Below, in pieces: positions 27,260 to 58,100 of a stretch of 61,520 nucleotides of DNA. How positions within the stretch are numbered: the first letter of the stretch is position 1; each line of letters begins with the position of its first letter. The notes below the pieces were generated by a model. That model did no database searches. It worked only from the letters and a program-made list of their open reading frames with translations, and was not told the origin of the DNA. Source of the stretch: Patescibacteria group bacterium (GTDB lineage Bacteria; Patescibacteriota; Doudnabacteria; UBA920); assembly GCA_036266555.1 (NCBI GenBank), contig DATAMW010000030.1, positions 1 to 61,520 on the forward strand. Direction: 5' to 3'. Made by a program: the position numbers and the translations under genes.

Positions 27260-27790
27260 ATGTTAACTATCCGCCTACAACGTGCAGGCAAAAAGAACAA
27301 ACCGGAGTACCGAATTGTTCTTGCAGATAAAACTGCAGCTGCGCAAAAGAAATTTACCGAAGTGCTTGGTTCTTACAACCCGCACACTAAAGCTCTAACT
27401 ATCCGCGATCAAGAACGCTTGAATTACTGGAAAGATGAACAGCATGTTGAACTATCTGCAACTGTTCGCAACCTGTTGATCACTAAAGAAATTATCAAAG
27501 GTGATAAAACTAAAGCTTTCACTATTCCTAAAAAGGAAGTAGTTGCTGAGGAAGCACCAGCAGCTCCAGCGGAAACTTCAACTGAAGCTCCTGCAACCGA
27601 AGAAGCTCCTAGCGAAACACCTGCTGAAGAAGTAGCAGAAGCTGTTGCTCCAGAAGCGCCAGCCGAAGTAGAGACACCTGCTGAACCAGAAGCTCCAGTA
27701 GCTGAAGCAGCTCCTGAAGTTGAGGCTCCAGCTGAAACTCCAACAGAAACACCAGCAGAAGCTCCTGCAACAGAAGAAACTCAAGTCTAA
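27260..27790 (+). CDS. rpsP: 30S ribosomal protein bS16 with a ~90-aa A/E/P/T-rich C-terminal extension
   Basis: MLTIRLQRAGKKNKPEYRIVLADK...GSYNP is the canonical S16 start. From about residue 95 the sequence is EEAPAAPAETSTEAPATEEAP... low complexity. Confidence 0.92.
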   Translation: MLTIRLQRAGKKNKPEYRIVLADKTAAAQKKFTEVLGSYNPHTKALTIRDQERLNYWKDEQHVELSATVRNLLITKEIIKGDKTKAFTIPKKEVVAEEAPAAPAETSTEAPATEEAPSETPAEEVAEAVAPEAPAEVETPAEPEAPVAEAAPEVEAPAETPTETPAEAPATEETQV

Positions 27791-27805: not shown

Positions 27806-27828
27806 CTCCGCCTTCGGGCGGTTTTTTA
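27806..27828 (+). terminator. Intrinsic terminator after rpsP
   Basis: CTCCGCC-ttcg-GGCGG followed by T6. Confidence 0.75.
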
Positions 27829-27857
27829 TTGACTTTTTGTCTACCTCATCGTATGAT
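27829..27857 (+). promoter_or_regulatory. Sigma70-type promoter (TTGACT-17-TATGAT) for the first small anchored protein gene
   Basis: -35 at 27829-27834, 17-nt spacer, -10 at 27852-27857. Confidence 0.5.
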
Positions 27858-27915: not shown

Positions 27916-28395
27916 ATGAACAATAATAAGATGATCACGCTAGGCGTGTTAGTCCTAGCCCTTATAGTAGCAGCGGTTTTGTATTTTAATATGCAAAATA
28001 ATAAAAAAGATGTTGCTATGAACACAAATGTTCCTGAAAAAACTAAGGAAATTGTGAAAACTGATGTAGAAACTAACAAATCTCCGGAAAAATTCCCAAC
28101 TGACATTCCAATCGAATCTGGCGCTACAATTACCCAAAACTACAATGCGACTGCTCCAGATGGCCGTTTCCAAGCCACTCGCGCATTCACTAGTAAGAAA
28201 ACATTGGGCGAAAACTACGCACTTTACAAAGAATGGATGAATTCTAATGGTTGGACCATTGCTTCATCAGTTGATCAGCCAACCTATAAAATGGTTTCTG
28301 GCACTAAAGGCAAGCAAACTCTCCAAGCCTCAATTAGCGAAAATAGCTCTACTAAAGAAGTTACAGTTACCTTATCTTTGACAATTCTCCCTTAA
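27916..28395 (+). CDS. Small N-terminally membrane-anchored protein, family member S1 (unknown function)
   Basis: One N-terminal TM helix, then a ~110-aa domain with the block PEKFPTDIPIESGATITQNYNATAPDGRFQATRAF shared with the ORFs at 33586 and 34067. Confidence 0.7.
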   Translation: MNNNKMITLGVLVLALIVAAVLYFNMQNNKKDVAMNTNVPEKTKEIVKTDVETNKSPEKFPTDIPIESGATITQNYNATAPDGRFQATRAFTSKKTLGENYALYKEWMNSNGWTIASSVDQPTYKMVSGTKGKQTLQASISENSSTKEVTVTLSLTILP

Positions 28396-28411
28396 TTTAG
28401 CCTCTTTTTTA

Positions 28412-28440
28412 AAACTCCCTTGTTTGGGAGTTTTATTTTA
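28412..28440 (+). terminator. Intrinsic terminator after S1
   Basis: AAAACTCCC-ttgttt-GGGAGTTTT followed by ATTTT. Confidence 0.65.
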
Positions 28441-28461
28441 GCTTAATGTGGGGCATTTTAC

Positions 28462-28490
28462 TTGATTTTTCCGTGCATTCGTGCTATAAT
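28462..28490 (+). promoter_or_regulatory. Sigma70-type promoter (TTGATT-17-TATAAT) for giant protein G1
   Basis: -35 at 28462-28467, 17-nt spacer, -10 at 28485-28490. Confidence 0.55.
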
Positions 28491-28531
28491 TAAGTTAATA
28501 AAAAGTCAGAGTTCGAAACAAAAACAAATAA

Positions 28532-31500
28532 ATGAGTAAGAAATTCTTAAATGCGCACGCAAGACAGTGGTTCTTGATGATTTTCGGTCTTTTTGCTATG
28601 GTTTTCCCTCTAAAATCTAATTTTAGGAAAATTACCCATATTGCCGTTCTAATAGCAATATTAGTTGGAACAATTAGTGCTGGAACATTAATCAATCCAA
28701 ATGTAGCCCACGCTAGTTGTGATCCGGCCACTCAGCAGCAAGATTATCAGGCTCCAACGGTTTCAATTTCTCAGCCAACTGGTTCTTACACAGATCCAGG
28801 AAGTATGAGCATTGCGATTTCCGGTCAATTGGCTTATTACTGTGAAGGCTTTGTTGGTGGTGGCGCTGGTTACCAAAATACAGCTACCTCGGTAAACTAC
28901 CAAATTACTAATGACTCAAACGGGAGCATGCTATTTTCTAATACATGGAACTCTCCCTCATGTCCAAACCCATTAGCTTGTTTGCCTGGGCCTTATAATA
29001 TTTCTGATACTGCTAATGCTTCTTTGTGGGGCACAGCAAGTTATACAATTACAGCTAGTGTGTATGATAATACCCAGCATTCAGCAGGTAACCCAAACCC
29101 TATTGCTACAAGCTTTAATCATTTTACAGTTACCCGCACCGCAGCAGTAGGTTATGAAATTCAAGGTAGTCTTGCGATCCAGTCTGTTACTCCTGATCCT
29201 TCGGATACATCGATAAATGTATCTGGAACAGGAACTGGTGGCTATTGGTCTCGAGGAGGCCCTCGTTGTTTCTTTGGATCTAATCGCTCTGAAGCGTTCA
29301 TTCGCATGCAACTGGTTACAACTACGCCTGCCAATGGACCTTATCCGCCAGGATCTGACAGTATTACAAATAATTCTTATCACAATCCACCGCCATCAAG
29401 TTACTCAACAATTTATAAGATAGATGGATCAACTGCTGGCACTTATCCATTAGTTCTGACTTATTCAGGCAGTGATGTTCCTGGAGATCCTAATTGTAAT
29501 ACTACTCCAGATCCGATGGGTTATTCTTTCAATTTTTCTATCAATACTACTGGATTAACTAATGGTCAGCACACAGTGACTGTTACTGCTTGGGATGAGT
29601 CCAAGAAAATGGTAGTTTCTTCTACTTACACATTCACAGTGTCTCATCCAGTTGTCCTTACTCCAGACTGGTCTGTATCTTGTACTCCAGCTTCTGTAAC
29701 CCTGACCCAAGGGAACTCTGGTAGCTATTCTTTATCTACATCACCGATTAATGGATTTAAATCTGCTGTAACTTTTAGCGGCCCATCTTACAGCCCGAAT
29801 CCAGGAGTTGCTCCAAGTGTATCTTTTTCAAACAACTCTCAAGCTCCTTCAGCAACGACTACAGCTATTATAAATACAACAGCATCTACATCACCAGGCA
29901 CATATACCTTAACATTCACTGGCACAGATGGCTTAAATACACACACCTGTTCTGTGCAGTTGATAGTGCAGGCGCTCCCGTCTCCGACAGTAGTGTTATC
30001 TTTTAGCTCTTCGAGCACTGTTACTACTCAAACGATTGCCTCTGGAGCAAGTACAACTATATATTGGACTCCAACCAATACTACTGCCGGTACAAACTGT
30101 ACAGCCAGTAATGCTTGGAGCGGAGCACAAGGCAGTAACTCTGGACAGCAATATAGTTATGCTACCCCATCAATGTCTTCTTTTGGCAGCCCGTATACAT
30201 TTAGCATACAGTGTACTGGGCCAGGTGGAACCACCTCTCTGACCAGTATTGTATTAACAGTTTCAGCTAGTCCAGATTTCTCACTTTCGTGTACTCCATC
30301 GTCTCTTACTCTTACTCAAGGGAACTCCGGTAGCTACTCCTTAACAACTACGCCGTTAAACGGTTACACTGCTAAGGTTACTTTTTCAGGGCCTTCGTAT
30401 AGCCCAACTCCAGGTGTGGCGCCGTCAATTAGTTTTTCAAACAACACCCAAATTCCTAGTGCTACTACTACAGCACTTGTTACTACTACTACATCCACTT
30501 CTCCAGGCACATACAACCTAACTTTCACAGGCACAGGTAGCGGAGCAACTCATAATTGTTCTGTGCAATTAATAGTTACTGCAGTGGCTACTCCAGCAGT
30601 AGAGCTTTCTTTTAGCCCTCATCCAAGTGTGATAACAACCCAAACAATTTCTGCTGGATCAAGCGCTACTTTGTATTGGTATCCAACCAACACTACTGCA
30701 GGTACAAACTGTACTGCCAGCAATGCTTGGGGTGGAGCTTTGGGTAGTAATCCAGGCCAGCAATACAGTCAATCAACTGGCGCCATGCCAGCGGGTACTT
30801 ATACTTATACGATTCAATGTACTGGGCCAGGGGGAAGCACCTCTCCAGCTAGCGTTACATTAACGGTTTCTTCTGCCCCTGTTCCAGACTGGTCTATATC
30901 TTGTACTCCAGCTTCTATCACAATCACTCAAGGCAACTCCGGTAGTTACTCTCTTTCTACATCACCAATTAATGGATTTGCTTCTGCTGTAACCTTTAGC
31001 GGTCCTTCGTACAGCCCATCTCCTGGCGTTGCGCCAAGCATATCTTTTTCAAACAACGGCCAAGTGCCAAGTGCCACTACTACAGCAATTGTTACTACAA
31101 CTGGCTCTACTTCTGCAGGTACATATACTTTAACTTTCACAGGTACAGGTGGCTCAATTACGCACACTTGTTCTGTGCAGTTGATAGTGCAAGCTGTATC
31201 AGTCACTGCTTCTGTAGACATTAAGTGTAACGGTACTGATGGACCATGTCCTGTGGCATCCGGAGGCAGCGCCACTTTGTCATGGACTTCTAGTAATTGT
31301 ACTGGTATTTCTATTGACCAAGGCATTGGCGGCGTGGCTGCCACTGGAACCACTCCAACCGGCAGTACATTCTCGACTAAAACTTTTATTATTACTTGTA
31401 CAGCTGTCTCTGGTGATGTTACTGACTCAGTGACCATAACAGTAAATCCTGCAGACTGGTCTTTGTCTTGTACTCCAGCCTCTATCACTGTTCCTCAAGG

Positions 31501-33529
31501 TAATTCAGGCAGTTATTCTTTATCTACATCACCAATCAATGGATTCTCTTCTGGAGTGACATTCAGCGGTCCTTCGTACAGCCCAACTCCAGGGAATGCC
31601 CCAGGCATTAGTTTCTTTAGCAATGGCCAAGTGCCAAGCGCGACTACTACTGCCTTCGTTACTACTTCTGCGCTCACCACTGCAGGAACATATACCTTAA
31701 CTTTCACAGGTACAGGCGGCGGCATTACCCATACTTGTTCTGTCCAATTGATAGTGCAGACAGTAGCGGTGACTTCAGGCATTGATTTAAAATGTAATGG
31801 CACAGATGGACCGTGTACGGTTATTTCTGGTGGCAGTGCAACTTTGTCTTGGGTGCCAACTAATTGTTCTGGTACTCTTGATATGGAACCAGGCGGTATG
31901 ACTCTTGCAAACTCCCCAGGCTCAATGTCTACGGGCCCACTATTTAGTAGTCGCAATTATTTCCTTTCCTGTTTTGATGGCTCAGGCGGATCTTATTCTG
32001 ATTCTGTTACAGTCAACGTTGGTGTTGATTGGTCTTTGTCATGTAGCCCGAGTGCGGGTACTGTATCGCCTGGTGGTTCAACCAGCTTCTCTTTGTCGAC
32101 TAGCCCAGTAGGTGCATTCGGTGGCGCCATTACTTTCAGTGGGCCAACTTACAGCCCAACTCCAGGGGTGGCCCCATCTGTAAGTTTCACAAATAATAAT
32201 CAACTGACACCAGCTACGACGACAGCCATAATTTCAACAACTGGCTCTACTTCCACAGGTGTATATAATATAACGTTCACTGGAGTCATGACTGGCAGTG
32301 GCGGCATGTTCCCACACAGCTGTACTGTGCAGTTGACGATTGGTTCGGCTCCGCCACCTTCAGACTGGACGTTATCATGTACCCCACCTTCGGCAAGTAT
32401 TATGGCAGGAAATTCTACAAGTTTTTCATTATCTACTACTCCAGTTAGCGGCTTTAACAAGGCTGTCACTTTTAGTGCTCCAACCTATTTCCCAACTCCT
32501 AGCACGCCACCATCAGTTTCTTTTTCAGGCAATAGTCAGGTGCCGTCTGCTGTAACAACTGCGATTATTACCACTACATCGAGTACGTCCACTGGAACCT
32601 ATACGCTTCAGTTTAATGGCGTTGGCAATGGGATTACGCATATTTGTAGTGTCTCGTTGACTATTAGTGGTGGGCAACCGGCTACTCCAATAAACGTGAC
32701 TACTTCCAATTTCCCTTGTGGCACAGTGACTGTGAGTTGGGCGCCAGGGACACCGTCGACTCCAGCCCCAAGTGGGTACAGAGTTTTCCGAGGCACTAGC
32801 TCGAATCCATCTTTTGGAACTTGGACACTAATTTCTAAGCCAACGAAAACAGATCCTGATCCGTTGCCTCCAACCCAAACCAGCTGGCAAGATACCAGCC
32901 CTGGTTACAGCAGTAATTATTACAAGGTTTTGGCTTACAATGGGCTCACTGCGTCTAATGACCCAGGTACTGCCACTTTGGGTAATGCTGCGGCTTGTGC
33001 AGGAGCTTTGACTAGCTCAGATATAGACCTTACTCAGGTGTCTGGAAAAATTAATAAAACCTTTAGTGCAATTTCTTGTAATGGTACTTCTGATGTGGCT
33101 ACGTTGCCTAACAACGCCTTATTCACAGTAGGCGATAGAGTAACATTCAAACTTAATGTTTGTAATTCTGGCTCAGCTGGTTTAACAAGTGTGTCAGTAT
33201 CTAATCCTCTCACCAATATCACCAGTCCAACCGTGGCCACGGCCTCACCTTCTGGTTGTGTAACCGGGCAATCATATAATGTGCTCTCAAATACCTTTAC
33301 CTTTAATTTAGCTGACCTACCATCTGGTGGCGGCTCTACGCAGGTTTGTAGTATTACTTATACAGCAACAGTGACGGCGCCAGCTTCTGCGCCTGGCAGT
33401 GTTTATCGATTCTTGAGCGCAGCCACTATTTATAGTACAGAACTTGGAAGCTATCCAATTACTACGCCACCGTATTTGTTTGGAAATACTTCCACTGTTC
33501 CAGATCGTACTGAAACAGCGCCGCAATAA
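28532..33529 (+). CDS. Giant secreted surface protein G1 (1665 aa): conserved head, six A-type and four B-type Cys-paired Ig-like modules, FN3, DUF11-like tail
   Basis: Signal peptide ending VAHA|SC. ~330-aa head shared with G2. Repeated ~100-aa modules beginning DWS(V/I/L)SCTP...GNSGSYSLSTSPINGF...THTCSVQLIVQA alternate with ~95-aa modules. C-terminal FN3-like (GYRVFRG...YYKVLAYN) and DUF11-like domain. Ends VPDRTETAPQ. The true start may be the internal ATG at 28598. Confidence 0.8.
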   Translation: MSKKFLNAHARQWFLMIFGLFAMVFPLKSNFRKITHIAVLIAILVGTISAGTLINPNVAHASCDPATQQQDYQAPTVSISQPTGSYTDPGSMSIAISGQLAYYCEGFVGGGAGYQNTATSVNYQITNDSNGSMLFSNTWNSPSCPNPLACLPGPYNISDTANASLWGTASYTITASVYDNTQHSAGNPNPIATSFNHFTVTRTAAVGYEIQGSLAIQSVTPDPSDTSINVSGTGTGGYWSRGGPRCFFGSNRSEAFIRMQLVTTTPANGPYPPGSDSITNNSYHNPPPSSYSTIYKIDGSTAGTYPLVLTYSGSDVPGDPNCNTTPDPMGYSFNFSINTTGLTNGQHTVTVTAWDESKKMVVSSTYTFTVSHPVVLTPDWSVSCTPASVTLTQGNSGSYSLSTSPINGFKSAVTFSGPSYSPNPGVAPSVSFSNNSQAPSATTTAIINTTASTSPGTYTLTFTGTDGLNTHTCSVQLIVQALPSPTVVLSFSSSSTVTTQTIASGASTTIYWTPTNTTAGTNCTASNAWSGAQGSNSGQQYSYATPSMSSFGSPYTFSIQCTGPGGTTSLTSIVLTVSASPDFSLSCTPSSLTLTQGNSGSYSLTTTPLNGYTAKVTFSGPSYSPTPGVAPSISFSNNTQIPSATTTALVTTTTSTSPGTYNLTFTGTGSGATHNCSVQLIVTAVATPAVELSFSPHPSVITTQTISAGSSATLYWYPTNTTAGTNCTASNAWGGALGSNPGQQYSQSTGAMPAGTYTYTIQCTGPGGSTSPASVTLTVSSAPVPDWSISCTPASITITQGNSGSYSLSTSPINGFASAVTFSGPSYSPSPGVAPSISFSNNGQVPSATTTAIVTTTGSTSAGTYTLTFTGTGGSITHTCSVQLIVQAVSVTASVDIKCNGTDGPCPVASGGSATLSWTSSNCTGISIDQGIGGVAATGTTPTGSTFSTKTFIITCTAVSGDVTDSVTITVNPADWSLSCTPASITVPQGNSGSYSLSTSPINGFSSGVTFSGPSYSPTPGNAPGISFFSNGQVPSATTTAFVTTSALTTAGTYTLTFTGTGGGITHTCSVQLIVQTVAVTSGIDLKCNGTDGPCTVISGGSATLSWVPTNCSGTLDMEPGGMTLANSPGSMSTGPLFSSRNYFLSCFDGSGGSYSDSVTVNVGVDWSLSCSPSAGTVSPGGSTSFSLSTSPVGAFGGAITFSGPTYSPTPGVAPSVSFTNNNQLTPATTTAIISTTGSTSTGVYNITFTGVMTGSGGMFPHSCTVQLTIGSAPPPSDWTLSCTPPSASIMAGNSTSFSLSTTPVSGFNKAVTFSAPTYFPTPSTPPSVSFSGNSQVPSAVTTAIITTTSSTSTGTYTLQFNGVGNGITHICSVSLTISGGQPATPINVTTSNFPCGTVTVSWAPGTPSTPAPSGYRVFRGTSSNPSFGTWTLISKPTKTDPDPLPPTQTSWQDTSPGYSSNYYKVLAYNGLTASNDPGTATLGNAAACAGALTSSDIDLTQVSGKINKTFSAISCNGTSDVATLPNNALFTVGDRVTFKLNVCNSGSAGLTSVSVSNPLTNITSPTVATASPSGCVTGQSYNVLSNTFTFNLADLPSGGGSTQVCSITYTATVTAPASAPGSVYRFLSAATIYSTELGSYPITTPPYLFGNTSTVPDRTETAPQ
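29663..32680 (+). repeat. In-frame tandem module repeats inside G1
   Basis: A-module starts read at 29663, 30272, 30884, 31451, 32024 and 32360, giving spacings of 609, 612, 567, 573 and 336 nt. The copies are clearly related but diverged at the nucleotide level. Confidence 0.85.
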
Positions 33530-33531
33530 TG

Positions 33532-33554
33532 TGATATGCTTAATATAAGCATAT
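33532..33554 (+). terminator. Hairpin after G1 (weak terminator)
   Basis: GATATGCTT-aatat-AAGCATATC (9-bp AT-rich stem) followed by TTTAAAT. Confidence 0.4.
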
Positions 33555-33585
33555 CTTTAAATAGAGTAGAAATTAAAATAAACAT

Positions 33586-34062
33586 ATGGAGCAAGTTAAA
33601 ATAAAACAATTGTTAACAGTCATTGGGGCATTTATTGTTGCTGGTTTAGTAGTGGCTGTGGGAACAGTGATCTATAAAAAATATGTAGCACCAACACCAG
33701 TGGCTATTAAATTGCCAGTGCAGCAAAAAGATTTGCCAGTGAATCAAGTGCCAGAAAAATTCCCTACAGACGTGCCAATAGAGACTGGCGCAACCATTAC
33801 TCAAAATTACAATGCCACAGCTGATGATGGTCGTTTTCAGGCCACTCGTGCTTTTGAAACCAACAAATCTTTGGCAGAGAACCTGACCCTTTACACAAAC
33901 TATTTGAAAGCTGGCGGTTGGACTCTTAACCCTGTAATTGATCAAGATATGTTTAAATTAATATCAGGCAGTAAGGGTAATCAGCAAATCCAATTTGCTA
34001 TGACTGAAAACAATGTGTCGCATAAAAAAACTGTGACTATTTCCTTAACTGAAATTAAATAA
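33586..34062 (+). CDS. Small N-terminally membrane-anchored protein, family member S2
   Basis: A TM helix, then VPEKFPTDVPIETGATITQNYNATADDGRFQATRAF. A close paralog of S1. Confidence 0.7.
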   Translation: MEQVKIKQLLTVIGAFIVAGLVVAVGTVIYKKYVAPTPVAIKLPVQQKDLPVNQVPEKFPTDVPIETGATITQNYNATADDGRFQATRAFETNKSLAENLTLYTNYLKAGGWTLNPVIDQDMFKLISGSKGNQQIQFAMTENNVSHKKTVTISLTEIK

Positions 34063-34066
34063 TATT

Positions 34067-34555
34067 ATGATGAACAAGAAATTACTTATTGCTGTTGGGG
34101 TTTTGGTAATCGCAGCTGCGGCTCTAGCAGCAATTTACTTTTTTCATATTAAAAAAAATCAACCAAAACCTTTTGCAGTTGAAACAAAAACTTTAGACGC
34201 TGCTGTTTTGCCAAGTGGTTTTCCAAAAAACATGCCAATCGAAGCTGGCTCAACAGTGTTGCAAAACTACGAGGCCACTACCACAGATGGCAGAAAACAG
34301 TCTACCCGAGTTGCTACTACGAACAAAACTTTAACCGCAGCACTGAAAGACTATTCAGATTATTTTGTGCACTTAGGATGGACATTAATTCCTAATACAG
34401 ATGCTGCAACCAATACTACTAGCGCCCTATTAAGATATCAAGATAGAATATTAGTCATTAGCGGCAGTACAAATGATGCTACAAAACAAAACAGTGTTTC
34501 TTTAACTTTGACTGAATCATTTGTACAAGCCCCAGCTAGTAATATTAAGAAGTAG
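34067..34555 (+). CDS. Small N-terminally membrane-anchored protein, family member S3 (more divergent)
   Basis: A TM helix, then GFPKNMPIEAGSTVLQNYEATTTDGRKQSTRVA...HLGWTL. Same layout as S1 and S2. Confidence 0.65.
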   Translation: MMNKKLLIAVGVLVIAAAALAAIYFFHIKKNQPKPFAVETKTLDAAVLPSGFPKNMPIEAGSTVLQNYEATTTDGRKQSTRVATTNKTLTAALKDYSDYFVHLGWTLIPNTDAATNTTSALLRYQDRILVISGSTNDATKQNSVSLTLTESFVQAPASNIKK

Positions 34556-34564
34556 TAAAAGCAT

Positions 34565-37500
34565 ATGCTAAAACAAAACTTTAAATTCATAACCACTAGA
34601 CTAGTCAGCTTGTTAATGACAGTCGCTATCTCTGCAGGAGCAATTACTGCTGGGACTTTTGTTGCGCCAAATATTGCGCATGCTAGCTGTAATCCAGCAA
34701 CTCAAGAGCAAGATTATCAATCTCCAACTGTATCTGTGTCTCAGCCAACTGGCACCTATACAGATCCTGGTACTATTAACATTGCGATTTCTGGCCAACT
34801 CACTTACTACTGTGAAGGGGATGTTCCTCCTGGCGGCGGCGGATTTGGTTATCAGAATACAGCCACTGCAGTAAATTACCGCATTACCCGTGACTCTGAT
34901 GGCACCGCGCTGTTTAATCAAACATGGCATTCCCCAAGTTGTGATGACCCTTTGGCTTGTCTTCCTGGACCATATAATATTTCCGATGGAGCCAATGCTT
35001 CGGCATGGGAATCAGGTGCTTACACCATCAGAGCTGATGTATATGATAATACCCTTCATTCCACTGGAGCGATCGTTAATACCAGCACTAATCACTTTAC
35101 AGTGCAACAAACTCCAGGCGCTCCCGGGTATGAAATTCGAGGTAGCCTAGGTATTAATAGTGTTAATCCAAATCCAGCAGACACATCTGTGACTGTAACT
35201 GGAACCGGTGTTGGCGGCTATTGGTCTCGCGGTGGACCACGTTGTTATCAAGGGTCTAACCGTTCCGAAGCGTTCATTCGCATGCAGTTAGTGACCACTA
35301 CTCCAGCTAATGGGCCATACCCTCCTGGATCCAGTGCCATTATTAACGCTGCTTACCACAATACTCCAGTTCCAAATTATCCGACTACTTATAAAGTAGA
35401 TGGAGTGAATGCTGGCGTTTATCCGTTAGCACTTAACGAGGCTGGCAGTGATGTTCCTGGAGACCCAGCTTGTGACACAGTGCCAGACCCAATGACCTAC
35501 ACATTTAGTTTCCCAATTAATACTGCGGGACTAAGCGGTGGCAATCATACAGTGACTGTGTATGCTTGGGATGAATCCACACAAACAGAAATTTCTTCTA
35601 CAACTACTTTTGCAGTGCAGCACAATGCATTAATTTGTGATGCAACTCATACTGTTCAAAGCGGTACCCCTGCTCAATATTCTGTGGGTATGACTGGTAA
35701 TCCATCTGGCACTATCAGTGTGACTATGTCGAGCAACCCAAGCGGCCCACAAATGACTAATAGCCCATTGAGTTTAAATGCTGGCAATAGTTTTACTGGA
35801 GTTGCTAATGTTTCTACTGCTGGCTTAGCAGCAGGAACCTATAATTTAACTTTCACAGGCATGCCTGGGTCTTTCACCTGTGCTGCCACTTTAATTGTTA
35901 CTGCAGTGCCATCGGCGCCACAAGTAGATATTAAATTTAATGGCAGTGATGCTCCTCCGCCACTAAGCTCTGGCACAACCAGTGGCACCATTAGTTGGGG
36001 GAACCAAAATGTAGTTGGTTGTACTGCTTCTTCTAGTTCTAATCCAGCTGGGCGCGACGCAGTGCTTAGCCCAGTGTGGAATGGTTCATATAACGTCAGC
36101 CCAGCAGGAAATGGTTCGCAATCTGTATCTGGATTACAAGATAACACCACTTACACTTTTGTATTAAACTGTACAGGTGTGGCAGGTAGCAATCCATCTT
36201 CGGACTCTGATAACGTAGTGGTCAGTATTGGATCGTCTGCTCCAGTGCTTAACCCTTCTGCTGACATTAAATGTAATGGCAGTGATGGACCATGTACTAT
36301 CCCAAGCGGGACTAGTGCAATTTTAACTTGGACATCCACCAATACAGCAGGCAATTGTACTATTACCAATATTCCTGGTGCGCAACCGTTAAATAATCCA
36401 AGCCCTGGAATTACTACAGGCAACTTAACTAACCCACCAGGCAGTTACGATTATACTATCACTTGTCCTGGAGTAATGGCTGGTAGCTCGCCACCTAACG
36501 GCACTGACAATGTGCACATCAACGTGACTGCGGCACCACCAGTTCAACCATTTGCAGATATAAAATGTTCTGACAGTCCAAGCTCGGGCCCTAGCGATGG
36601 TCCATGTTATGTAACGCGCGGATCTGTTGGCTATCTAACTTGGGCATCATCAAATACTACTAGCTGTACTTTGTCGGAAAATGGGCAGAATCCAGGTTTT
36701 GCATCTTTGAATCGCCCAGCACCGTATCACACTGATTCAATTGATGTTGATACTACATTTACTTTAGCTTGTACTGGTCCTGGAGGTTCGACTTCGGATT
36801 CAGTTACCTTCATTGCAGTGGATGGCAATCCGCCGCCAAGCGTTGATTTAAAATGTATTGGCGACAACGGGCAAACTTCGGATGGTCCATGTGCGGTGCA
36901 AAGTGGCAATGTTGGTCATTTAACTTGGACTTCTAGTCATGCAGATAACTGTACTATGAGTAGAGATGGCGGCGGCCAATCATCTGTGGCAACCAATCAA
37001 GGTGCTCCGGGTATGGCTACGCCAACGTTAACTGCTAATACCAGTTATACAATTACCTGTTCTGGACCAACAAGTCCAGTAGCAACCGATTCAGTAACAT
37101 TTACTATCACTCAAACACCTCCTCCTCCTCCTGGCGGCGGCGATGATTTTACTTTGGCTTGTACTCCAGCAGCAGTGACTATCCATCCTGGTGACTCAAC
37201 TGCATTCCAGATTAACACTACCAAAGTTGGTAACTTTAACGACTATGTAGTTATCTCTGTACAAACATTTATTCCTACGCCTAGTCATCAAGCGCAAATT
37301 AGTTTTAGCGGCAACAATCAAATGCCTTCTGCTACTACGACTGCGTTAGTTACTACTGATGGCACCACTTCTCTTGGTTCCTACACTGTTGTGTTCCAAG
37401 GTGATGGCGGCGGGATTAATAAAACTTGTAACGTAGTTTTGAATATTGTTGATAGTTCTCCTCCGCCCCCACCACCACCTCCACCACCTCCTGCAGCGCC

Positions 37501-38305
37501 GCGCGCGCCGTCAGTGTCTGCTGATGTATCGCAGTGTGGTAAGGTAACTGTGAATTGGAGTCCAAATCCTCCTCCAACACCATCAAGTTATAATGTGTAT
37601 CGTGGTAATAACTCGAATCCATTCTCTGGTTCTTGGCAATTAATTGCGAGCGTACCAGAACCAGGCCGTTCCTTTACTGATAACGCCCCGGCCACTAGTA
37701 ACAACTATTATAGAGTTGAAGCTGTCACCTCTGGAGGCTCAGCGTCTTCTGGAGCTGTCTTAGGCAACATGTCTCCATGTGTACCGAACATTAATGCTTC
37801 GGACAAAGATTTAACTAGTGTTTCTGGTTTAATTACTAAAAACTTTGCGTTACATCCTTGTAACGGTACTTCTGATGTAGCTAGTTTGCCAGTGAATACC
37901 GTGTTTGCCATGAATGATAAAGTGACTTTCCGCATCAATGTTTGTAACGATGGCCCTGGTGCTTTAACCGGAGTTACTGTTGCGGACACATTAAAGAATC
38001 TTACTAATCCAACTTTTAGTAACCTGTCTCCTTGTGTCACTGGTCATAGTTATAATCCGGGACAAAACACTATCAAATTTGCTTTGAATAATGTTGCTCC
38101 TGGTAATGTAGTGCGCCAAGTGTGTACTATTGAATTTACTGCGACAGTTACAGCACCAGCAGTAACAACCGCTGCGCTGTATCGATTCCAAAACATTGCT
38201 GATATTTCTTCTAAAGAATTACCAGTGAAGCGCGTGATGACTCCGCCATATTTGTTTAGCGTTACAGGCGGTGTTCCAGATAGAACTGAAACCGCGCCAC
38301 AGTAA
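34565..38305 (+). CDS. Giant secreted surface protein G2 (1246 aa), paralog of G1
   Basis: Signal peptide ending IAHA|SC. The head is collinear with G1 (for example ASCNPATQEQDYQSPTVSVSQPTGTYTDPG, RSEAFIRMQLVTTTPANGPYPPGS). Four B-type modules (DIKCNGSDGPC...), one or two A-type modules, a P11 tract, FN3-like and DUF11-like tail. Ends VPDRTETAPQ. Confidence 0.8.
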   Translation: MLKQNFKFITTRLVSLLMTVAISAGAITAGTFVAPNIAHASCNPATQEQDYQSPTVSVSQPTGTYTDPGTINIAISGQLTYYCEGDVPPGGGGFGYQNTATAVNYRITRDSDGTALFNQTWHSPSCDDPLACLPGPYNISDGANASAWESGAYTIRADVYDNTLHSTGAIVNTSTNHFTVQQTPGAPGYEIRGSLGINSVNPNPADTSVTVTGTGVGGYWSRGGPRCYQGSNRSEAFIRMQLVTTTPANGPYPPGSSAIINAAYHNTPVPNYPTTYKVDGVNAGVYPLALNEAGSDVPGDPACDTVPDPMTYTFSFPINTAGLSGGNHTVTVYAWDESTQTEISSTTTFAVQHNALICDATHTVQSGTPAQYSVGMTGNPSGTISVTMSSNPSGPQMTNSPLSLNAGNSFTGVANVSTAGLAAGTYNLTFTGMPGSFTCAATLIVTAVPSAPQVDIKFNGSDAPPPLSSGTTSGTISWGNQNVVGCTASSSSNPAGRDAVLSPVWNGSYNVSPAGNGSQSVSGLQDNTTYTFVLNCTGVAGSNPSSDSDNVVVSIGSSAPVLNPSADIKCNGSDGPCTIPSGTSAILTWTSTNTAGNCTITNIPGAQPLNNPSPGITTGNLTNPPGSYDYTITCPGVMAGSSPPNGTDNVHINVTAAPPVQPFADIKCSDSPSSGPSDGPCYVTRGSVGYLTWASSNTTSCTLSENGQNPGFASLNRPAPYHTDSIDVDTTFTLACTGPGGSTSDSVTFIAVDGNPPPSVDLKCIGDNGQTSDGPCAVQSGNVGHLTWTSSHADNCTMSRDGGGQSSVATNQGAPGMATPTLTANTSYTITCSGPTSPVATDSVTFTITQTPPPPPGGGDDFTLACTPAAVTIHPGDSTAFQINTTKVGNFNDYVVISVQTFIPTPSHQAQISFSGNNQMPSATTTALVTTDGTTSLGSYTVVFQGDGGGINKTCNVVLNIVDSSPPPPPPPPPPPAAPRAPSVSADVSQCGKVTVNWSPNPPPTPSSYNVYRGNNSNPFSGSWQLIASVPEPGRSFTDNAPATSNNYYRVEAVTSGGSASSGAVLGNMSPCVPNINASDKDLTSVSGLITKNFALHPCNGTSDVASLPVNTVFAMNDKVTFRINVCNDGPGALTGVTVADTLKNLTNPTFSNLSPCVTGHSYNPGQNTIKFALNNVAPGNVVRQVCTIEFTATVTAPAVTTAALYRFQNIADISSKELPVKRVMTPPYLFSVTGGVPDRTETAPQ
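37460..37492 (+). repeat. In-frame poly-proline (P11) tract in G2
   Basis: cct ccg ccc cca cca cca cct cca cca cct cct, read directly. Confidence 0.9.
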
Positions 38306-38410: not shown

Positions 38411-38791
38411 ATGGAGAATGATCAAGAATTTGTTGAATACATCATCAAGGCGTTAGTTGATAACCCGGCAGATGTTCGCACAGATCGTACCGTTGATGAA
38501 ATGGGTGTTCTAATTACCTTACACATCAATCCTGCAGACATGGGCCAAGTAATTGGTCGTATGGGCCAAACTGCTAAAGCCGTTCGCACCCTTCTACGCG
38601 TTGTTGGTGCTAAGCATAAAGCTCGTGTTAACTTGAAGATTGATGAACCAGAAGGTTCTCATCGTGGACCGCGCCGTGATTACGGTGACCGTCCTCGTAC
38701 TGATGCCCCTGCATCTGACTCAATGTCCAGCGATGACTCTCAAGCGCAAGCCGAAAGCGCCGCTCCAGACATGGATGACTTCAAACTTTAG
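38411..38791 (+). CDS. KH-domain RNA-binding protein (YlqC/UPF0109-like) with a basic/acidic C-terminal extension
   Basis: VEYIIKALVDNPADVRTDRTVDEMGVLITLHINPADMGQVIGRMGQTAKAVRTLL matches the UPF0109 KH fold motif (GxxIGRxG). It holds the usual position between rpsP and trmD. Confidence 0.8.
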   Translation: MENDQEFVEYIIKALVDNPADVRTDRTVDEMGVLITLHINPADMGQVIGRMGQTAKAVRTLLRVVGAKHKARVNLKIDEPEGSHRGPRRDYGDRPRTDAPASDSMSSDDSQAQAESAAPDMDDFKL

Positions 38792-38814
38792 TTTAAAGAT
38801 AAAAAACAAAAGAT

Positions 38815-38834
38815 CGCTGTTACAGCGGTTTTTT
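38815..38834 (+). terminator. Intrinsic terminator or attenuator
   Basis: CGCTG-tta-CAGCG followed by GTTTTTTG. Confidence 0.5.
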
Positions 38835-38842
38835 GTTATCAT
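38834..38842 (+). promoter_or_regulatory. Extended -10 (TGtTATCAT) 6 nt upstream of the trmD ATG (leaderless-type)
   Basis: TGTTATCAT at 38834-38842, ATG at 38849. Confidence 0.4.
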
Positions 38843-38848
38843 TTATAT

Positions 38849-39571
38849 ATGAAGAAAACAGCGAAACGAAAAATCTCAGTCTCAATAATTACTTTGTTCC
38901 CTGAGTTCATAGACCAGTACGCTGGTTTTGGAATTATTGCTCGGGCAATTAAGAATAAACTTTTGAATATTAAAGCAGTAAATCTGCGTGGTTTTTCGTT
39001 TGATAAACGTGGGACTGTTGATGATCGCCCGTACGGCGGTGGCTTGGGCATGGTGCTGCGACCGGATGTTGTGATTAAGGCGATTACAAAGTTGCGCGGG
39101 CGTGTGAGTGCGGCAAATGCAAAAAAAACGCGCGTGGTATTAATGACTCCGCAAGGGAAGCCATTCACGCAGGCAATTGCGCGCAAGTTATCTAGCTACG
39201 ACCATTTGGTGTTTGTGTCTGGTCGCTATGAAGGCTTTGATGAACGCGTGCGCAAATTCGTAGACGAAGAAATTTCCATTGGCGATTACGTATTAATGGG
39301 CGGCGAGTTGCCAGCATTGGTAATTACCGAGGCAGTGCTACGTTTAGTGCCGGGTGTTTTAGGGAAAGATGACTCTGCAGACAAAGAAAGTTTTACTGAG
39401 AGCATGCTTGAGTTTCCGCAGTACACCAAACCAGAAGTTTTAGAGGTGGCTGGTAAAAAATTGCGCGTGCCAAAAGTGTTATTGAGTGGACATCATTTAA
39501 ATATTGAACAGTGGCGCGCGGAAGAGGCAACGAAACGCACCAAGAAGCGTCGACCGGATTTGTTAAAATAA
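38849..39571 (+). CDS. trmD: tRNA (guanine37-N1)-methyltransferase
   Basis: ISVSIITLFPEF, DDRPYGGGLGMVLRPD, VFVSGRYEGFDERV and IGDYVLMGGELPALV are canonical TrmD blocks. Confidence 0.95.
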   Translation: MKKTAKRKISVSIITLFPEFIDQYAGFGIIARAIKNKLLNIKAVNLRGFSFDKRGTVDDRPYGGGLGMVLRPDVVIKAITKLRGRVSAANAKKTRVVLMTPQGKPFTQAIARKLSSYDHLVFVSGRYEGFDERVRKFVDEEISIGDYVLMGGELPALVITEAVLRLVPGVLGKDDSADKESFTESMLEFPQYTKPEVLEVAGKKLRVPKVLLSGHHLNIEQWRAEEATKRTKKRRPDLLK

Positions 39572-50231: not shown

Positions 50232-50495
50232 ATGTCAGAGCAGCAAAAACTTCTGCTTTCACAGCCTCAGAATCTAATTTCTATGGCGAAAGTAGCGAAG
50301 TTAACCCCATATTCTGCTGAATATTTATCGTTACTATCTCGCAAGGGGCGTATTCCAGCAATCAAGATCAACCGCGACTGGCTAACTAGCCGTCAGGCGG
50401 TTTTGTCATATGTGGCTGAGCAAAAGAAAAAGCATGAATCATTGCTCAAGCGGTTTGATAGCTCTGCTGCCTTAGAAAATGGAGGGACACGATAA
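50232..50495 (+). CDS. Small helix-turn-helix protein (excisionase/MerR-like HTH_17-type)
   Basis: LISMAKVAKLTPYSAEYLSLLSRKGRIPAIKINRDWLTSRQAVLSYV resembles the excisionase-family DNA-binding HTH. Its stop overlaps the next start (TAATG). Confidence 0.6.
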   Translation: MSEQQKLLLSQPQNLISMAKVAKLTPYSAEYLSLLSRKGRIPAIKINRDWLTSRQAVLSYVAEQKKKHESLLKRFDSSAALENGGTR

Positions 50496-53400
50496 TGCCA
50501 GAGATTACTATCAATTTAATCCATGATTTGAGAAAGTCTCATGCGCTTAAAAAACCCAAGCCACCTTTTTTTGGTGGGCTGCGAACAGGTTATGTTCGTG
50601 CTTGGGTTTTTGTGGTGCTTAAAGTTTGGTTGATCGTTGCTTTAATCAACGGCGTTACCACCATGGATAAAATTGAAAGAAATATGGCATTGCTAGATAG
50701 TTATATTCGCAATGATTTTTCTCAACCTGAAATATTTTTTCCAAACCAACCTCAGACTACATTAGCAATTGGAAAATTCCATAAACCAAAATCATCAAAC
50801 TCATTGCAAACGAATTCTGGTGTGTTTATGCCACGCGGCCCTGAGCTAGCAACTGATAACAATGAAGAAGGAACAGTGGCTGGAGATTTTACTGCAAGCT
50901 CATCTAGTACACAAAGTATTGTTTCCTCAGCTTCTTCTGCGTCGCTAGTATCAGTACCGCCTTCGCCAGCCCAGGCAACTTCAGGGAATAGTTCTGCTGC
51001 AGCGCTGACAAATGTTACTGAACAATTTGTGCAGCAGACTGTGCAATATTCTTTAGCGCAATCAATTAACTTTGGATTCATATTAGGCAACGGCACAGCA
51101 TTGCGCGGTTGTTTGTTCGCAGACCAATACGGAATTATTTCTGGGAGCGGACGCCGTTGTACAACTGGCGGCGGGGGAAGCAGTAGTTCTGGTGGCGGTA
51201 CTGTGAGCATGGCTATAGGGGACGCAGTTACAGGTGCTACTCAAGGCTCAGTCTTATTTGCTGGAGCTAGTGGAGCGCTTGCCCAAGACAACACTAATTT
51301 CTTTTTTGATGATTCAACTAACAGCTTAAGTCTTGGTGGCAACTTAACTGTGGCCGGCCTTGGCGGTAGCGGCATCAGATGTTTGCAAACTGATAACACT
51401 GGTGCAATTTCTGTAGCCGGTGCATCTTGTGGTTCTGGTGGCAGCCAAACTCCGTGGACAGCCCCAATCGATGCTGATGGATTTGCAGTGACCAACTCAA
51501 CCGGATTTAACGGCTTAGTAGTTACTCCGAATAGCGGCGTAATTACGACTGGAACTTGGAATGGCACTACAATTGCCGTAGCCAATGGCGGCACAGGAGG
51601 TACATCATTTACATCTAATGGAGTGGTGTATGGCAATGGCTCATCTCCATTACAAGTTACAGCTCAAGGCGGAGCGAACACAGTGCTTGTGGCAAACAAT
51701 GGTGCACCAAGTTTCAGTTCGTCCATCACAGTTGGTACAAGTGTTACTTCTCCAACGGTTAACGCAACAACCGCGGTACAAATTAATGGCGCCAACATTA
51801 ACACTGCTGGCACTTTAAATAATGTTGCTTACTTAAATCAAGCGAATAATTTTGTAGCATCAAGTACTGTTGGAATTTCATATACAAACAGTTCTGGGCA
51901 TGCGTTAATGAAGGTTGATGCTGCTAGTGCGTCTCAAGGTGGATATTACATTTACAAAGCTGGAGTAGAAAAAGCGCAACTGGCTGTGTTGGGATCTTCA
52001 AATGATTTAACTTTCAATATGGCAGGCACTCCTCACATGACTTTGCAGGCTGCTGGTAACTTGGGTATTGGCGATGCATCTCCAGCCGCTATGCTAACTG
52101 TAGGTAACGGCGACTTATTCCAAGTCAATAGTAGTGGTGCAATTGCTGCAGCCACTGGCATCACTTCTTCTGGAACAATTACTCTTTCTGGTTTAGGCGG
52201 CGGCGGTGTACAGTGTGTGCAAACTTCTAACACTGGTGTGTTATCTGCGGCCGCTTGCGGTGGCAGCGGAGGAATAACAATCGGCACAACCGCAATCACC
52301 AGCGGCACTAACGGTCGTGTACTGTATGACAACTCTGGCGTTGTCGGGGAAATGACAACTACTGGTTCAGGCACAGTATTAGCTTTGGCAACTAGCCCAG
52401 CATTTTCTACATCAATTTCTACACCGTCTATTGTAACCGCTTCCGGTGCATTAACTGTTACTCCAGCCGCTGGCTCTAATTTAAACATAAACCTCTCTAC
52501 TACTGGTGACTTTGCGGTTAATACAAATCAACTCTATGTTGATACTTCAACTGGAAATGTTGGGATTGGCACCGCTAGTCCTAGTAGCTTATTAACCGTT
52601 GTGGGTACTGGTGCTAGCGATAGTGCTATTACCATAGGCCCAACTACTGCGTCTGATGGTAATGCAACTTTGTATCTAAATGGTAAGAATGGAGGCACTA
52701 CTTATCAAGCAAGTATATATTCTAGCTATCTTGGAGCATTACTTATAGCACCGAATGCTGCTGACCCTTCGGTAATTATCGGCGGTGCGGATTATGTAAA
52801 TGGGAATATGCTAAATGTTTTTGGGAGAGCCGCGATAGGTTCGACATATGCAGCTTCGGCCGCTCCAACTGATGGGATGATTATTGAAGGCAATGTTGGC
52901 ATTGGCGATGCTACTCCAGTTGCCATGTTTACTGTTGGCGCCGGCGACTTATTCCAAGTCAACTCTTCTGGTGCAATTGCTGCTACCACTGGCATTACAA
53001 CTACTGGTGCTTTAAATACTTATGTTGGCGGTGGTGCAGATATCTTTAATGCCTTTGACACTAGTGACAGCAATAATCCAGTTGCTACCATGTACATTGG
53101 TTCTGACAGTGGAATCATGGAATTAGGTGGCGGTGGAACATTAGACCAAATTCATTTAAGTGGTGCTGGAGGTGGATCGTCATATTTCAGAAACAGCCTT
53201 GGGATTGGCACGGATACCCCTGGCTATTTGTTACATGTAGCAGAAAACACTAGCAATGGCTCTAGCTCTATCACCGCAAATATGACGCCGACTTATGATT
53301 ACAGTTCAAATGGCTCCCATCCACAAACTGTTCTTTGGGCTCAGCCGGTAATTACAGGTAGTGCAAATAATACTGGCACAATTCGCGCCTTCAATGCACT

Positions 53401-55117: not shown

Positions 55118-58100
55118 ATGAAATTTTTAACACTAAAATCTATATTTTCAAAAACCGCAATCGCATTGTTGGTTCTTGTAGTTGTAGTTAGCGTTGGAAA
55201 TCTTGCAGACCTATCTAAGGTGAGCGCAACTGGAACTCCAACAGACCCTAACTCTACTGGGTATTCTTGGTCAGACATGACTTGTACGCTAAACGCTGGG
55301 GTAAGTTGTGCTGGTGGTGTTGTGACTCGAACAGCAGCGAGCAGTGGTTATGGTGCTGCATACGCCCAAGCTAATCAAACTATTCAATACGGCACCGGTG
55401 CCGTCGCGGTACAAATTAATTCTATTAATGATGTATTTAGATTTGGATTAACTAATACAGGAACTTGGAATATCTTGCCATCAGCAATCACTGCTCCAGA
55501 TCCAAGCAGTGATGAAACTAGTTCCACTGCTCCAACTTTTGGTTTTTCATTCAGTGGTTCAGGGAACTATCGAATTTGGAATCAAGAGTCTGGCAGATTG
55601 TTCAATGTTGATTCTGGAAATGGAGTATTCCAAGCAGGTGACTGGGCAATTGTTTATTCTGATGAAGGAACTGTAAAGTATTATCGAGATCACGCTGGTT
55701 CGCTAACACTTTTGTACACTAGCGACTTCAATCCAGTTTCGCCGTCTTACCCATTGCTGCCACAGATTTCTATCAGTACTAACGGCGCTGCGGAAACAGT
55801 AAAAGTGTTGCAGCCAAAAGCATTTGGTAGCTCTGGAACAGTGTACGTGGCAACAACAGGAACCACATATGGGGCTGGCACTTTGGCTGACCCAATTACT
55901 TTAACTGCTGCTATCGACGGTAGTCGCCCTGTTTGTGGTAGTAGTGGTAATAATGATATTACCATTGCTGATGGTACCTACACTGCACCTTTCACAGCAC
56001 GCGTGAGTGGTAGTTCAGGCACCCTTTGTAAAATTCACGCCACGAATATCACCTATCCACCTTCTGTAAAAATTACTAATGCCACTAATGATATTAGTAT
56101 TACTGTAAGTGGGGACTATGAACAATGGAAAGATGTTGAAATTTATAACTCCAGTACTATTCGTACTACCACACAAGCTGGGGCTAGTACTGAAGCCACA
56201 ATTGACACTCATCGAAATGATGGTTGGCGCAGCGATGGCACCGGGAACCAAATAATCAACTCTGTAATTCATGACGAAGTTAACGGCATAGTTTCTCAGA
56301 CTCATGGCGGCACTATTGCTAGAGGGAATATTTCTTACAATAATGGTTTTAGTGCGAGCGATGGTGGAGCAGGCCACTGTGCTTATGTGCACAACACCAC
56401 AGATGTAGACAGATCGTATTTAAATAACAACGTGTTCTTTGGCTGTTATGGTTTGCAAATGCAATACTATAACCAAAATGGAGGGGACGAGACTGGTAAT
56501 ATGACTTTTGATAGAGACGTGGCTATTGGTGGAATGTTTGGAATTTTAGGACAAGGTCCAAAAACAGATATTGATGTAACCAATACCCATGTTTATAAAG
56601 GTAGCTTAACCTTAGGTTATTCAAATGAGATCAATCATACTGGCGGGGTATTTGATCATGATTATGTATATGGAGTCACGCCAATGCAAGTTAAGACTTG
56701 GGCCGGATTCAGTATCACAAATAATAAAATTGTAGAACAGGCAAATGGTGGTAATCGCATGATGGTGATGAATCAAAAAACTGGTACACCGCTTGGCTCA
56801 TATACTTTTACTGGCAATACTTATTATCGTGGATTAACAGGGAGCTGTCCTGGTGCTTGCCAAGAATTTACCATTTTAGATCAAAACGGAACTTCTCCTG
56901 TGGACTATACCATTGCTCAATGGCTGGGTTTGGGCTTTGATTCCGGCTCAACTTTTTATGATACTGCTAACGAAGCAGGAACTCCATATGGGACAGGCGT
57001 GGCAGTTCGTCCAAACACAACTGATGTATATGTAAACCCAAATGCTGACCAAGTCGGTCGTGCTAACGTGGTAATTTGGAACTGGCCATTGGCTAATAAC
57101 GTTAATGTTAACTTGTCTACTTCTGGATTAACCAACGGGCAACATTATGATGTGTACTCGGTTATATCCGGTAAAAAATTAATTTCTCAAGGTACATATA
57201 ACTCCAGTTCACCGACTGTATCATTCCCAATGAATACAGATGATGCACCTATTGCCCCAATAGGAGATTCTGGTTCAACTATTACTACAACCTTGCCGGA
57301 ATTCGGTGTGTTTGTGGTAATGCCAGGAACTAGTACAGACACCACTAACCCAACTGTTTCAATTACTGCTCCAGCCAACAGCGCCACGGTTTCTGGTTCA
57401 AGTGTCACTGTTTCTGCAAATGCTTCTGACAACGTTGGTGTGGTTGGTGTGCAATTTAAATTAGACGGCTCTAACTTAGGTTCCGAAGATACTTCAGCAC
57501 CGTACTCCATTACTTGGGACAGTACTGGAGCGTCGAATGCCAGTCATGCGTTGACTGCAGTGGCGCGTGATGCCGCGACCAATTCTACTACGTCGTCTAC
57601 TATTACTGTTACAGTGGATAATACACTTCCTACTGTTGCCACGCCGAGTATTTCTCCAAATGGCGGATCATTCAGCAGTGCGCAGTCTGTGACTCTCTCG
57701 ACAGTAACTTCTGGCGCAACCATCCGCTACACCACAGATGGCACTACGCCAACTTCTAGTTCAGGTACAATTTATAGTTCAGCTTTCTTAGTTTCGTCTA
57801 CAGCAACTGTAAAAGCTATTGCGTACAAAAATGGGAATACTGATAGCTCTGTTGCATCCGCATCCTTTACTATCACCATTCCCGCTGTAGTAGCGGATCC
57901 AAGCATTTCCCCGAACGGTGGATCGTTTAGTGATACACAATCCGTGACTCTCTCTACCGTAACTTCTGGCGCTAGCATCCGATACACCACAGATGGCACT
58001 ACGCCAACTTCTAGCTCAGGTACTGTCTACAGTTCAGCATTCAGTATTTCGGCTACAACTACTGTGAAAGCCATTGCCTACAAGAGCGGAGATATTGATA

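Follow-up and report, generated by a model that had tools for sequence, protein, structure and literature searches.

Candidate Phyla Radiation (CPR) bacteria, or Patescibacteria, live attached to other cells, and the large surface proteins of such host-attached bacteria are prime candidates for host recognition. To our knowledge, little has been established about how proteins of this kind are retained on the cell when they carry no LPXTG motif, lipobox or transmembrane (TM) anchor. Small accessory genes that serve one particular large secreted protein are a known kind of arrangement. The eag genes are small genes found directly upstream of large, polymorphic, secreted effectors of the type VI secretion system (T6SS), and their soluble, cytoplasmic products bind the TM helices of the effectors. 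EagT6/SciW share with LpqN, DcrB, Mog1, PsbP, MTC28 and TM1622 a Mog1/PsbP/DUF1795-like fold, and DcrB and LpqN are not known to be encoded beside dedicated cargo genes. Here we describe a family of small, N-terminally anchored proteins (S1, S2 and S3) whose genes precede those of two giant proteins (G1 and G2) in a 61,520-nucleotide (nt) stretch of DNA from a Patescibacteria group bacterium of the Doudnabacteria (positions 1–61,520 of contig DATAMW010000030.1, assembly GCA_036266555.1; hereafter, the window). Across the class, S genes are paired with genes for large secreted proteins, and the S subfamilies match the type of protein encoded downstream. We put forward, as a tentative reading, that S may be a dedicated tether or docking partner of an exported surface protein.

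Pairing of the S family with large secreted proteins

A preliminary description of the window, made from its letters alone, had listed three open reading frames (ORFs) with one shared N-terminal TM helix, a shared sequence block and a later motif, one copy preceding G1 and two preceding G2. All of this was borne out. S1 (27916..28395; 159 amino acids (aa)), S2 (33586..34062; 158 aa) and S3 (34067..34555; 162 aa) are present at the positions and lengths listed, on the + strand, as are G1, G2, their terminal peptides, the flanking genes and the terminator- and promoter-like sites given below. The family they form, of small proteins with an N-terminal anchor, is genuine. They can be aligned end to end, the other two being 44% and 35% identical to S1, and on this alignment they are true paralogs. 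Common to all three are the block (K/G)FP..PIE.G.T..QNY.AT..DGR.Q.TR and, later, the motif GWT(I/L), while S3 is marked by SGFP..QNYEAT..DGRKQSTR together with a C-terminal ..NIKK extension. The TM helix at each of their N-termini (MNNNKMITLGVLV.., MEQVKIKQLLTVIG.., MMNKKLLIAVGVLV..) looks uncleaved, and none of the three contains a Cys and hence a lipobox; the S domain is free of Cys in 99% of family members. A whole-genome profile search found no S copies other than these three in the 740-kb, 46-contig genome. A type IV pilin or pseudopilin identity was rejected, as the N-termini lack the Gly-Phe cleavage motif and Glu+5 and there is no class III signal peptide; the label PilV stands on one database member of the family.

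G1 (28532..33529; 1665 aa) begins 136 nt after S1. Its paralog G2 (34565..38305; 1246 aa) begins 9 nt after S3, which in turn lies 4 nt from S2, so that S2 is the first gene of an operon-like S2-S3-G2 block. A six-frame ORF scan of the genome found exactly two proteins with a head and tail of this type, G1 and G2. The earlier claim that an S gene always sits in front of the giant proteins thus held for the G family of this genome, and failed for two other giants of the window (50495-55105 and 55118-58822), neither of which has an S gene in front. One of these has 1536 aa and a Peptidase_S74 'chaperone of endosialidase' domain; the other has 1234 aa, a signal peptide and Big_7, CHB_HEX_C_1 and Fn3_assoc domains.

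To place this arrangement in context, regions of 16–20 kb around S genes were taken from 40 places in the class, which is identical with the window's order in the taxonomy used and comprises 146 species. ORF calling followed a simple longest-ORF rule, loci L043–L082 were picked around S matches and L083–L100 around matches to the C-terminal module of the partners (the tail, described below), and related genomes count as non-independent samples. In 43 related loci, the next ORF on the same strand after an S gene (the last of any tandem run) was at least 700 aa long in 37/77 cases and 350–699 aa long in 18/77, the figure for ORFs of at least 700 aa being 54/601 for the other genes of these loci (Fisher odds ratio 9.4, p=1e-15). 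A signal-peptide-like N-terminus was present on 62 of the 77 downstream neighbours. Viewed from the side of the partners, 34 of 70 tail-bearing proteins had S directly upstream and 19 more had it within four genes; 10 of the remainder lay at contig edges, and 7/70 were without S. The gap between S and the tail-protein gene was short (median 2.5 nt; at most 25 nt in 32/34 pairs), which suggests co-translation, and the window's own S1-G1 pair, with its 136 nt, was the outlier among the 34. These neighbourhood counts indicate that the module of S plus a large secreted protein is conserved across the class and is not a coincidence of the window.

The S family yielded 115 matches in a 90%-identity cluster database, and 2835 representatives at E<=1e-3 and 1139 at 1e-10 in a 50%-identity library; among the 150 representatives listed, most were single-domain proteins of 145–185 aa. 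Within the class, S was found in 107/146 genomes, in 1–5 copies clustered a few kb apart, and tail-profile matches in 123/146. Of the 39 genomes scored S-negative, nine had strong tails. In several S-negative genomes that were fetched, the gene just before that of the tail protein encodes a small TM protein with an S-profile E of 8e-5 to 0.3 or no match, and the true co-occurrence therefore exceeds that in the raw table. In the rest of the phylum, an even sample of ~283 genomes contained 14 with an S match (E=1e-6 to 1e-14), each in single copy.

A maximum-likelihood tree of 101 S proteins resolved two clades that differ in their partners. S3 falls in the B-type clade (98/100 support), 19/20 of whose members are encoded immediately before a tail protein. 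S1 and S2 fall in the A-type clade (97/95 support; 32 members), within which they are weakly supported sisters (87/79); the partners of the A-type members are metzincins (9), other secreted proteins of ~400 aa (10), tail proteins (8) and small ORFs (5), with an A-B tandem accounting for 5/8 of the cases in which an A-type S was paired with a tail protein. Partner class was strongly clustered on the tree, requiring 38 changes as against 53.8 in shuffles (0/200 as low). The tracking of downstream protein class by S subfamily fits the notion of a cognate partner raised in the preliminary description. Its view of that partner as a giant stood for the adhesin-like proteins of 700–2400 aa, and has to be widened to the ~500-aa metzincins and ~400-aa secreted proteins that follow A-type S.

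Most genomes of the genus encode, after the first S, a protein of ~470–560 aa that is a secreted metzincin-type zinc protease, as judged from HExxHxxGxxH together with Reprolysin/M10/M11 Pfam matches (e.g. L059:4275-5801, L046:8186-9598, L053:10452-11978). The gap from S to metzincin is wider than that from S to tail protein (n=9, median 131 nt, range 100–161 nt). No secreted metzincin was found anywhere in the window's genome, where G1 occupies the corresponding slot, and since the S1-G1 gap matches the spacing between A-type S and metzincin, G1 probably replaced a protease cargo. On the simplest reading, S3-G2 would be the ancestral pair of B-type S and adhesin, S1 the ancestral A-type gene of the first slot, and S2 an extra A-type copy in an A-B tandem, as in several relatives. 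A third class of S-associated secreted proteins, of ~380–410 aa with the C-terminus ..V(T/R)G.G(Q)(I/V)N and no Pfam match, was also seen (L046:9699-10895, L053:5107-6246, L053:9191-10417, L044:7431-8594), often between S and the pair of metzincin and tail protein (order S-S-Y-M-T, with Y for the third class, M for the metzincin and T for the tail protein).

The S/G block sits inside an otherwise conserved housekeeping cluster, between rpsP and khpA-trmD-rluD-rplS. In the window, the upstream flank is rpsP, encoding ribosomal protein S16 with a long tail (27260..27790), and the downstream flank comprises khpA, encoding a KH protein, and trmD (38411..39571). Gene order in the window's genus is very regular: SMC, S16, S, secreted protein, S (or S-S), tail-bearing protein, KH and TrmD. 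Although the island has a different location in other genera and families, ORFs of 1100–2000 aa again follow S there. By consensus match only, a terminator-like hairpin follows rpsP (27808-27821) and a promoter-like site, TTGACT-17-TATGAT, precedes S1 (27829-27857). A second terminator-like hairpin lies 3' of S1 (28410-28435) and a second promoter-like site, TTGATT-17-TATAAT with a TG element, precedes G1 (28462-28490); both fall within the 136-nt S1-G1 spacer.

Fold and topology of the S domain

An AlphaFold2 model of full-length S1, built from a 50-sequence alignment, was of high confidence (predicted local distance difference test (pLDDT) 92). It shows a TM helix at residues 4–28, a polar linker of about 20–25 residues and a short strand, followed by an extended conserved segment (PEKFPTDIPIESGA) and a β-β-α-β4 domain. 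Modelled alone, the ectodomain (~105 aa) reached a pLDDT of 95.9 and a predicted TM-score (pTM) of 0.88. When this domain-only model was searched against the PDB with Foldseek, high-probability matches were mostly to LpqN, DcrB, EagT6/SciW, Mog1, PsbP, MTC28 and TM1622, with probabilities of 0.84–0.99 for most and 0.69–0.77 for MTC28, and TM-scores of 0.39–0.52. The conserved polar residues of the family (E67, Q74, N75, Y76, Q86, T88, R89 and Y104 in S1 numbering) are spread over the extended segment, first hairpin and helix, and from their position in the sequence would be the obvious candidate for a binding site.

The likeness to DcrB, LpqN, Eag, Mog1 and PsbP appears to be a weak one at the level of fold, and not to amount to family membership. 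The corresponding DcrB, LpqN and Mog1-PsbP Pfam families had no match in the three window proteins or in 50 aligned members, and a profile search of PDB sequences with the S family gave nothing below E=0.15. Local Pfam and NCBIfam scans of S1–S3, and Pfam scans of the 50 members, likewise gave no significant match to a named family; sub-threshold matches to SpoIIIAH, DUF1510 (6/50 members, best E=4e-4), SurA_N and lipase chaperone were set aside as noise. In the protein database, most S homologs carry a precomputed match to Pfam PF27226 'AF_1845', which was weak at the two loci showing the mark; the window's S2 and S3 have no listed match of this kind, and the local Pfam copy used for the scans does not include the family. 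As no description or paper on AF_1845/PF27226 was found, it is taken to be an uncharacterised family. The preliminary description had been unable to assign the domain and had proposed profile searches and structure prediction: the former led to database homologs carrying weak precomputed PF27226 matches, and the latter to a confident model with a fold like that of DcrB, LpqN and Eag, on which the domain can now be assigned, if tentatively.

Distant homologs in further families of the phylum were also reached with the S profile (E from 1e-9 to 1e-17). Nine of these were examined (L107–L115), and several have lipoprotein-type signal peptides (..ATGC, ..LGGC, ..LSAC, ..FSAC), including one reached at E=4e-14 that was checked and carries PF27226. 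Because several distant homologs begin in this way, we infer that the S domain is extracytoplasmic; the signal-anchor helix of S would then replace their lipid anchor. The distant homologs share the motifs LP.DFP.D.P.Y.GA and ..FY...L...GW, and one has a long Pro/Gln-rich cytoplasmic N-tail.

Partner architecture and a possible docking role

G1 and G2 resemble fibrillar adhesins in having a signal peptide, a head, a repeat stalk and a CLIPPER-like domain (bioRxiv 10.1101/2025.04.25.650565). In G1, a signal peptide (..AHA|SC) and head are followed by Cys-paired repeat modules, an FN3-like module, a CLIPPER-like terminal domain and a terminal peptide. The terminal domain of G2 matches DUF11/CLIPPER PF01345 (residues 1111–1216; 28.0 bits vs a cutoff of 24.6), and that of G1 only sub-threshold DUF7507/CLIPPER_2 (16.8 bits vs 27). 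Throughout the class, the large partners share this C-terminal module: a CLIPPER/DUF11-like domain with a ..RFQN.A.I.. strand and a last strand TPPYLF, closed by the terminal peptide (V)P-x-(R/I)-x-E-(T/I)-x-P, after which the protein stops within 2–5 residues. In most partners the tail reads ..TPPYLF..P-x-R-x-E-T-A-P and is without a TM segment or LPXTG; across an alignment of 31 tails, no column apart from P and E is invariant. G1 and G2 both end in ..VPDRTETAPQ. The C-terminal peptide of G1 (TPPYLFGNTSTVPDRTETAPQ; 33464..33526) has the class-wide P-x-R-x-E motif at its extreme end with no TM segment after it, and that of G2 (TPPYLFSVTGGVPDRTETAPQ) lies at 38240..38302.

Neither G1 nor G2 has an LPXTG motif, hydrophobic segment or basic tail at its C-terminus, and they were thus rejected as sortase substrates. 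The genome does encode a sortase-domain protein of 515 aa with a long N-terminal extension (contig C22:2818-4365), and a pattern scan found one canonical LPITG-TM-RRKK protein (contig C35:10338-11315); on these sequence features a classical sortase route exists in the genome, and the G proteins do not appear to use it. An N-terminal lipid anchor was also rejected by eye, since the ..AHA-SC site, with His at -3, does not fit the PROSITE lipobox pattern. In many partners (28690-28705 and 34680-34690 in the window; L043–L081) a Cys stands 0–5 residues after the predicted cleavage site (AHA|SC, AEA|LC, ASA..C); this is not a lipobox, and may be a conserved Cys that forms a disulfide or a thioester.

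Two further features set G1 and G2 apart. Their heads (28700-29660 and 34670-35640) are 68–69% identical to each other and, among 60 related loci, almost unique to this genome, while their tails are 48% identical, about as distant as the tails of different species; the comparison suggests a recent head exchange or duplication within the genome. In addition, G1 has ..YRFLSAATI.. (33400-33526) where G2 (38180-38302) and nearly all relatives have ..YRFQN.A.I.., so that the conserved Asn of the last-but-one strand of the CLIPPER-like domain, the expected isopeptide donor, is replaced, and the terminal domain of G1 may be without that cross-link.

The docking that we tentatively propose would work as follows. 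S1–S3 would most likely be type-II membrane proteins, with the N-terminus inside and the domain outside, the TM helix of ~25 residues and the polar linker holding the β-sheet domain near the external face of the membrane. Each S subfamily, encoded directly upstream of one class of Sec-exported surface protein, would be dedicated to that class: the B-type (S3) to an adhesin-like protein ending in a CLIPPER-like domain and P-x-R-x-E peptide (G2), and the A-type (S1, S2) usually to metzincins or other secreted proteins of ~400 aa. The conserved polar motif (E67, Q74, N75, Y76, Q86, T88 and R89 in S1) would bind the cognate protein on its exit from the Sec channel, and S would keep the bound protein docked at the membrane, probably via the conserved C-terminal module. 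Because LPXTG, lipobox and C-terminal TM segment are all absent from the G proteins, such docking is proposed to be what retains them on the cell. A narrower version, which we consider unlikely though worth stating, is that the CLIPPER-tail adhesins would be received at the membrane by the ectodomain of B-type S, acting as receptor for their TM-less C-terminal signal ..TPPYLF..P-x-R-x-E-T-A-P.

If true, this would constitute a previously undescribed, sortase-independent anchoring of giant adhesins in ultra-small episymbiotic bacteria, and what would be new is the possibility of a C-terminal anchoring signal without sortase, plus its receptor. Release could, in relatives, fall to the metzincin encoded alongside, which has an A-type S of its own. 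A literature search found no paper on such S-adhesin or S-metzincin partners in Patescibacteria. The family offers a conserved, small and easily expressed partner with cargo-matched subfamilies, its description gives PF27226 a first functional context, and the S gene together with the terminal P-x-R-x-E motif can serve as a genomic marker for surface-protein islands.

Several observations weigh against a docking role. The binding of S to its cargo is something that we infer rather than observe directly. Positive-inside considerations are ambiguous, with family-average net charges of +1.35 on the N flank and +1.22 on the C flank of the helix, and the Foldseek matches have weak E-values (0.02–0.2 overall and 0.02–0.1 with the domain-only model) and rmsd (root-mean-square deviation) values of 5–12 Å. 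In the window, S1 appears from its putative promoter and terminator not to be strictly co-transcribed with G1. A-type S precede metzincins with quite different C-termini, and a single C-terminal-peptide mechanism therefore cannot cover all S. In Mantel and partial Mantel tests on 20 direct S-tail pairs, S compared with tail, head and TrmD gave r of 0.05–0.16 with no significance (about 0.1 for S vs tail or head, p 0.12–0.15), although with 20 pairs at 30–50% identity and divergence near saturation the power of these tests was low. Finally, the preliminary description had looked to co-occurrence in related genomes, and to S homologs commonly found apart from giants as a sign against a module. 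Enrichment within the class is strong and the pairing holds there; at the same time, for 22/101 S genes in the class the next four genes downstream include none for a tail-bearing protein, and the distant homologs stand alone, 0/9 examined adjoining a giant gene.

Alternatively, S could be a private extracytoplasmic chaperone or foldase that transiently holds or folds its large, Cys-rich and repeat-rich cargo at the membrane without being a stable anchor, much as the lipase-specific foldase Lif does or, in terms of fold, the Eag adaptors; we regard this as rather unlikely. The resemblance of the S fold to EagT6 and SciW (TM-score 0.43–0.52), the position of the S gene directly upstream of its cargo, as for eag genes, and the service of A-type S to metzincins, which often need help with folding or activation, would all suit such a role, and the TM-plus-linker layout is mirrored by a weak NCBIfam match of S3 to 'lipase secretion chaperone'. 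That match (NF002334) scores 14.8 bits vs a cutoff of 285, however, and the S domain is mostly β-sheet with one helix, whereas the lipase chaperone Lif is all-helical; Eag proteins, for their part, are cytoplasmic and bind TM helices.

It is more doubtful that there is no specific coupling at all, and that S is a general PF27226 envelope protein inherited or duplicated as a cassette within a variable rpsP-khpA/trmD island. The solitary distant homologs, the lack of a mirror-tree signal and the 22/101 S genes without a nearby tail protein are as expected in that case, and the clustering of partner class on the tree could arise by cassette inheritance. By contrast, the pairing is kept in genera and families in which the island does not lie between rpsP and khpA (L063–L081), it is kept with highly divergent S-like genes, and the gaps or overlaps of a few nt are conserved.

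By analogy alone, to LapA-LapG or to PPEP-1 and its substrates, S might instead be a membrane-tethered inhibitor, shield or regulator that guards the envelope of the producing cell against the co-encoded protease or adhesin, or that controls adhesin release. In relatives, the locus does join a secreted metzincin to an adhesin with Pro-Pro near its C-terminus (TPPYLF), each preceded by its own S subtype. We consider this improbable, as the window's genome keeps three S genes with no secreted metzincin, and Pfam and PDB-sequence searches found no similarity of S to known protease inhibitors. Least probable by far is a cytoplasmic S domain with the N-terminus outside, acting in Eag-like fashion on the hydrophobic N-terminus of the giant before export: the flanking charges favour neither topology and the fold resembles Eag, but the lipoprotein signal peptides on several distant members of this Pfam family point to an exported domain, and the short K-rich N-tail of S looks like the n-region of a signal anchor.

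Comparison with described systems

Set against the remote members of PF27226, which are single-copy and stand alone, S has expanded specifically in this class into several TM-anchored copies linked to genes for surface proteins. Its best fold matches are DcrB (PDB 6e8a) and LpqN (PDB 6e5d; probability 0.95–0.99, TM-score 0.41–0.48, E 0.02–0.03), which, as predicted for S, are small domains held on the outer side of the cytoplasmic membrane. Tethering in DcrB and LpqN is through a lipobox, in contrast to the TM helix of S, their domains are longer (140–170 aa vs ~105 aa), and there is no match at the level of sequence. The DUF1795 proteins EagT6 and SciW (PDB 6xrf, 6xrr) match S with TM-scores of 0.43–0.52 and probabilities of 0.84–0.99; unlike them, S is TM-anchored and probably extracytoplasmic, and its partners have Sec signal peptides. 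A Pfam scan found no PAAR or Rhs match in G1 or G2.

In layout, S is similar to Lif, whose extracytoplasmic domain is likewise joined by a linker to an N-terminal TM anchor and which is encoded beside a single secreted client; the two may act in a comparable manner. On the partner side, sortase-dependent LPXTG fibrillar adhesins with CLIPPER (DUF11) stalks share with G1 and G2 the signal peptide, head, repeat stalk and conserved C-terminal signal. In G1 and G2, however, that signal is P-x-R-x-E-T-A-P at the very end of the protein, with no hydrophobic segment and no basic tail. None of PF27226, DcrB/LpqN, Eag and Lif combines a TM-anchored domain of this fold with pairing to CLIPPER-tail proteins and metzincins, as the S family does.

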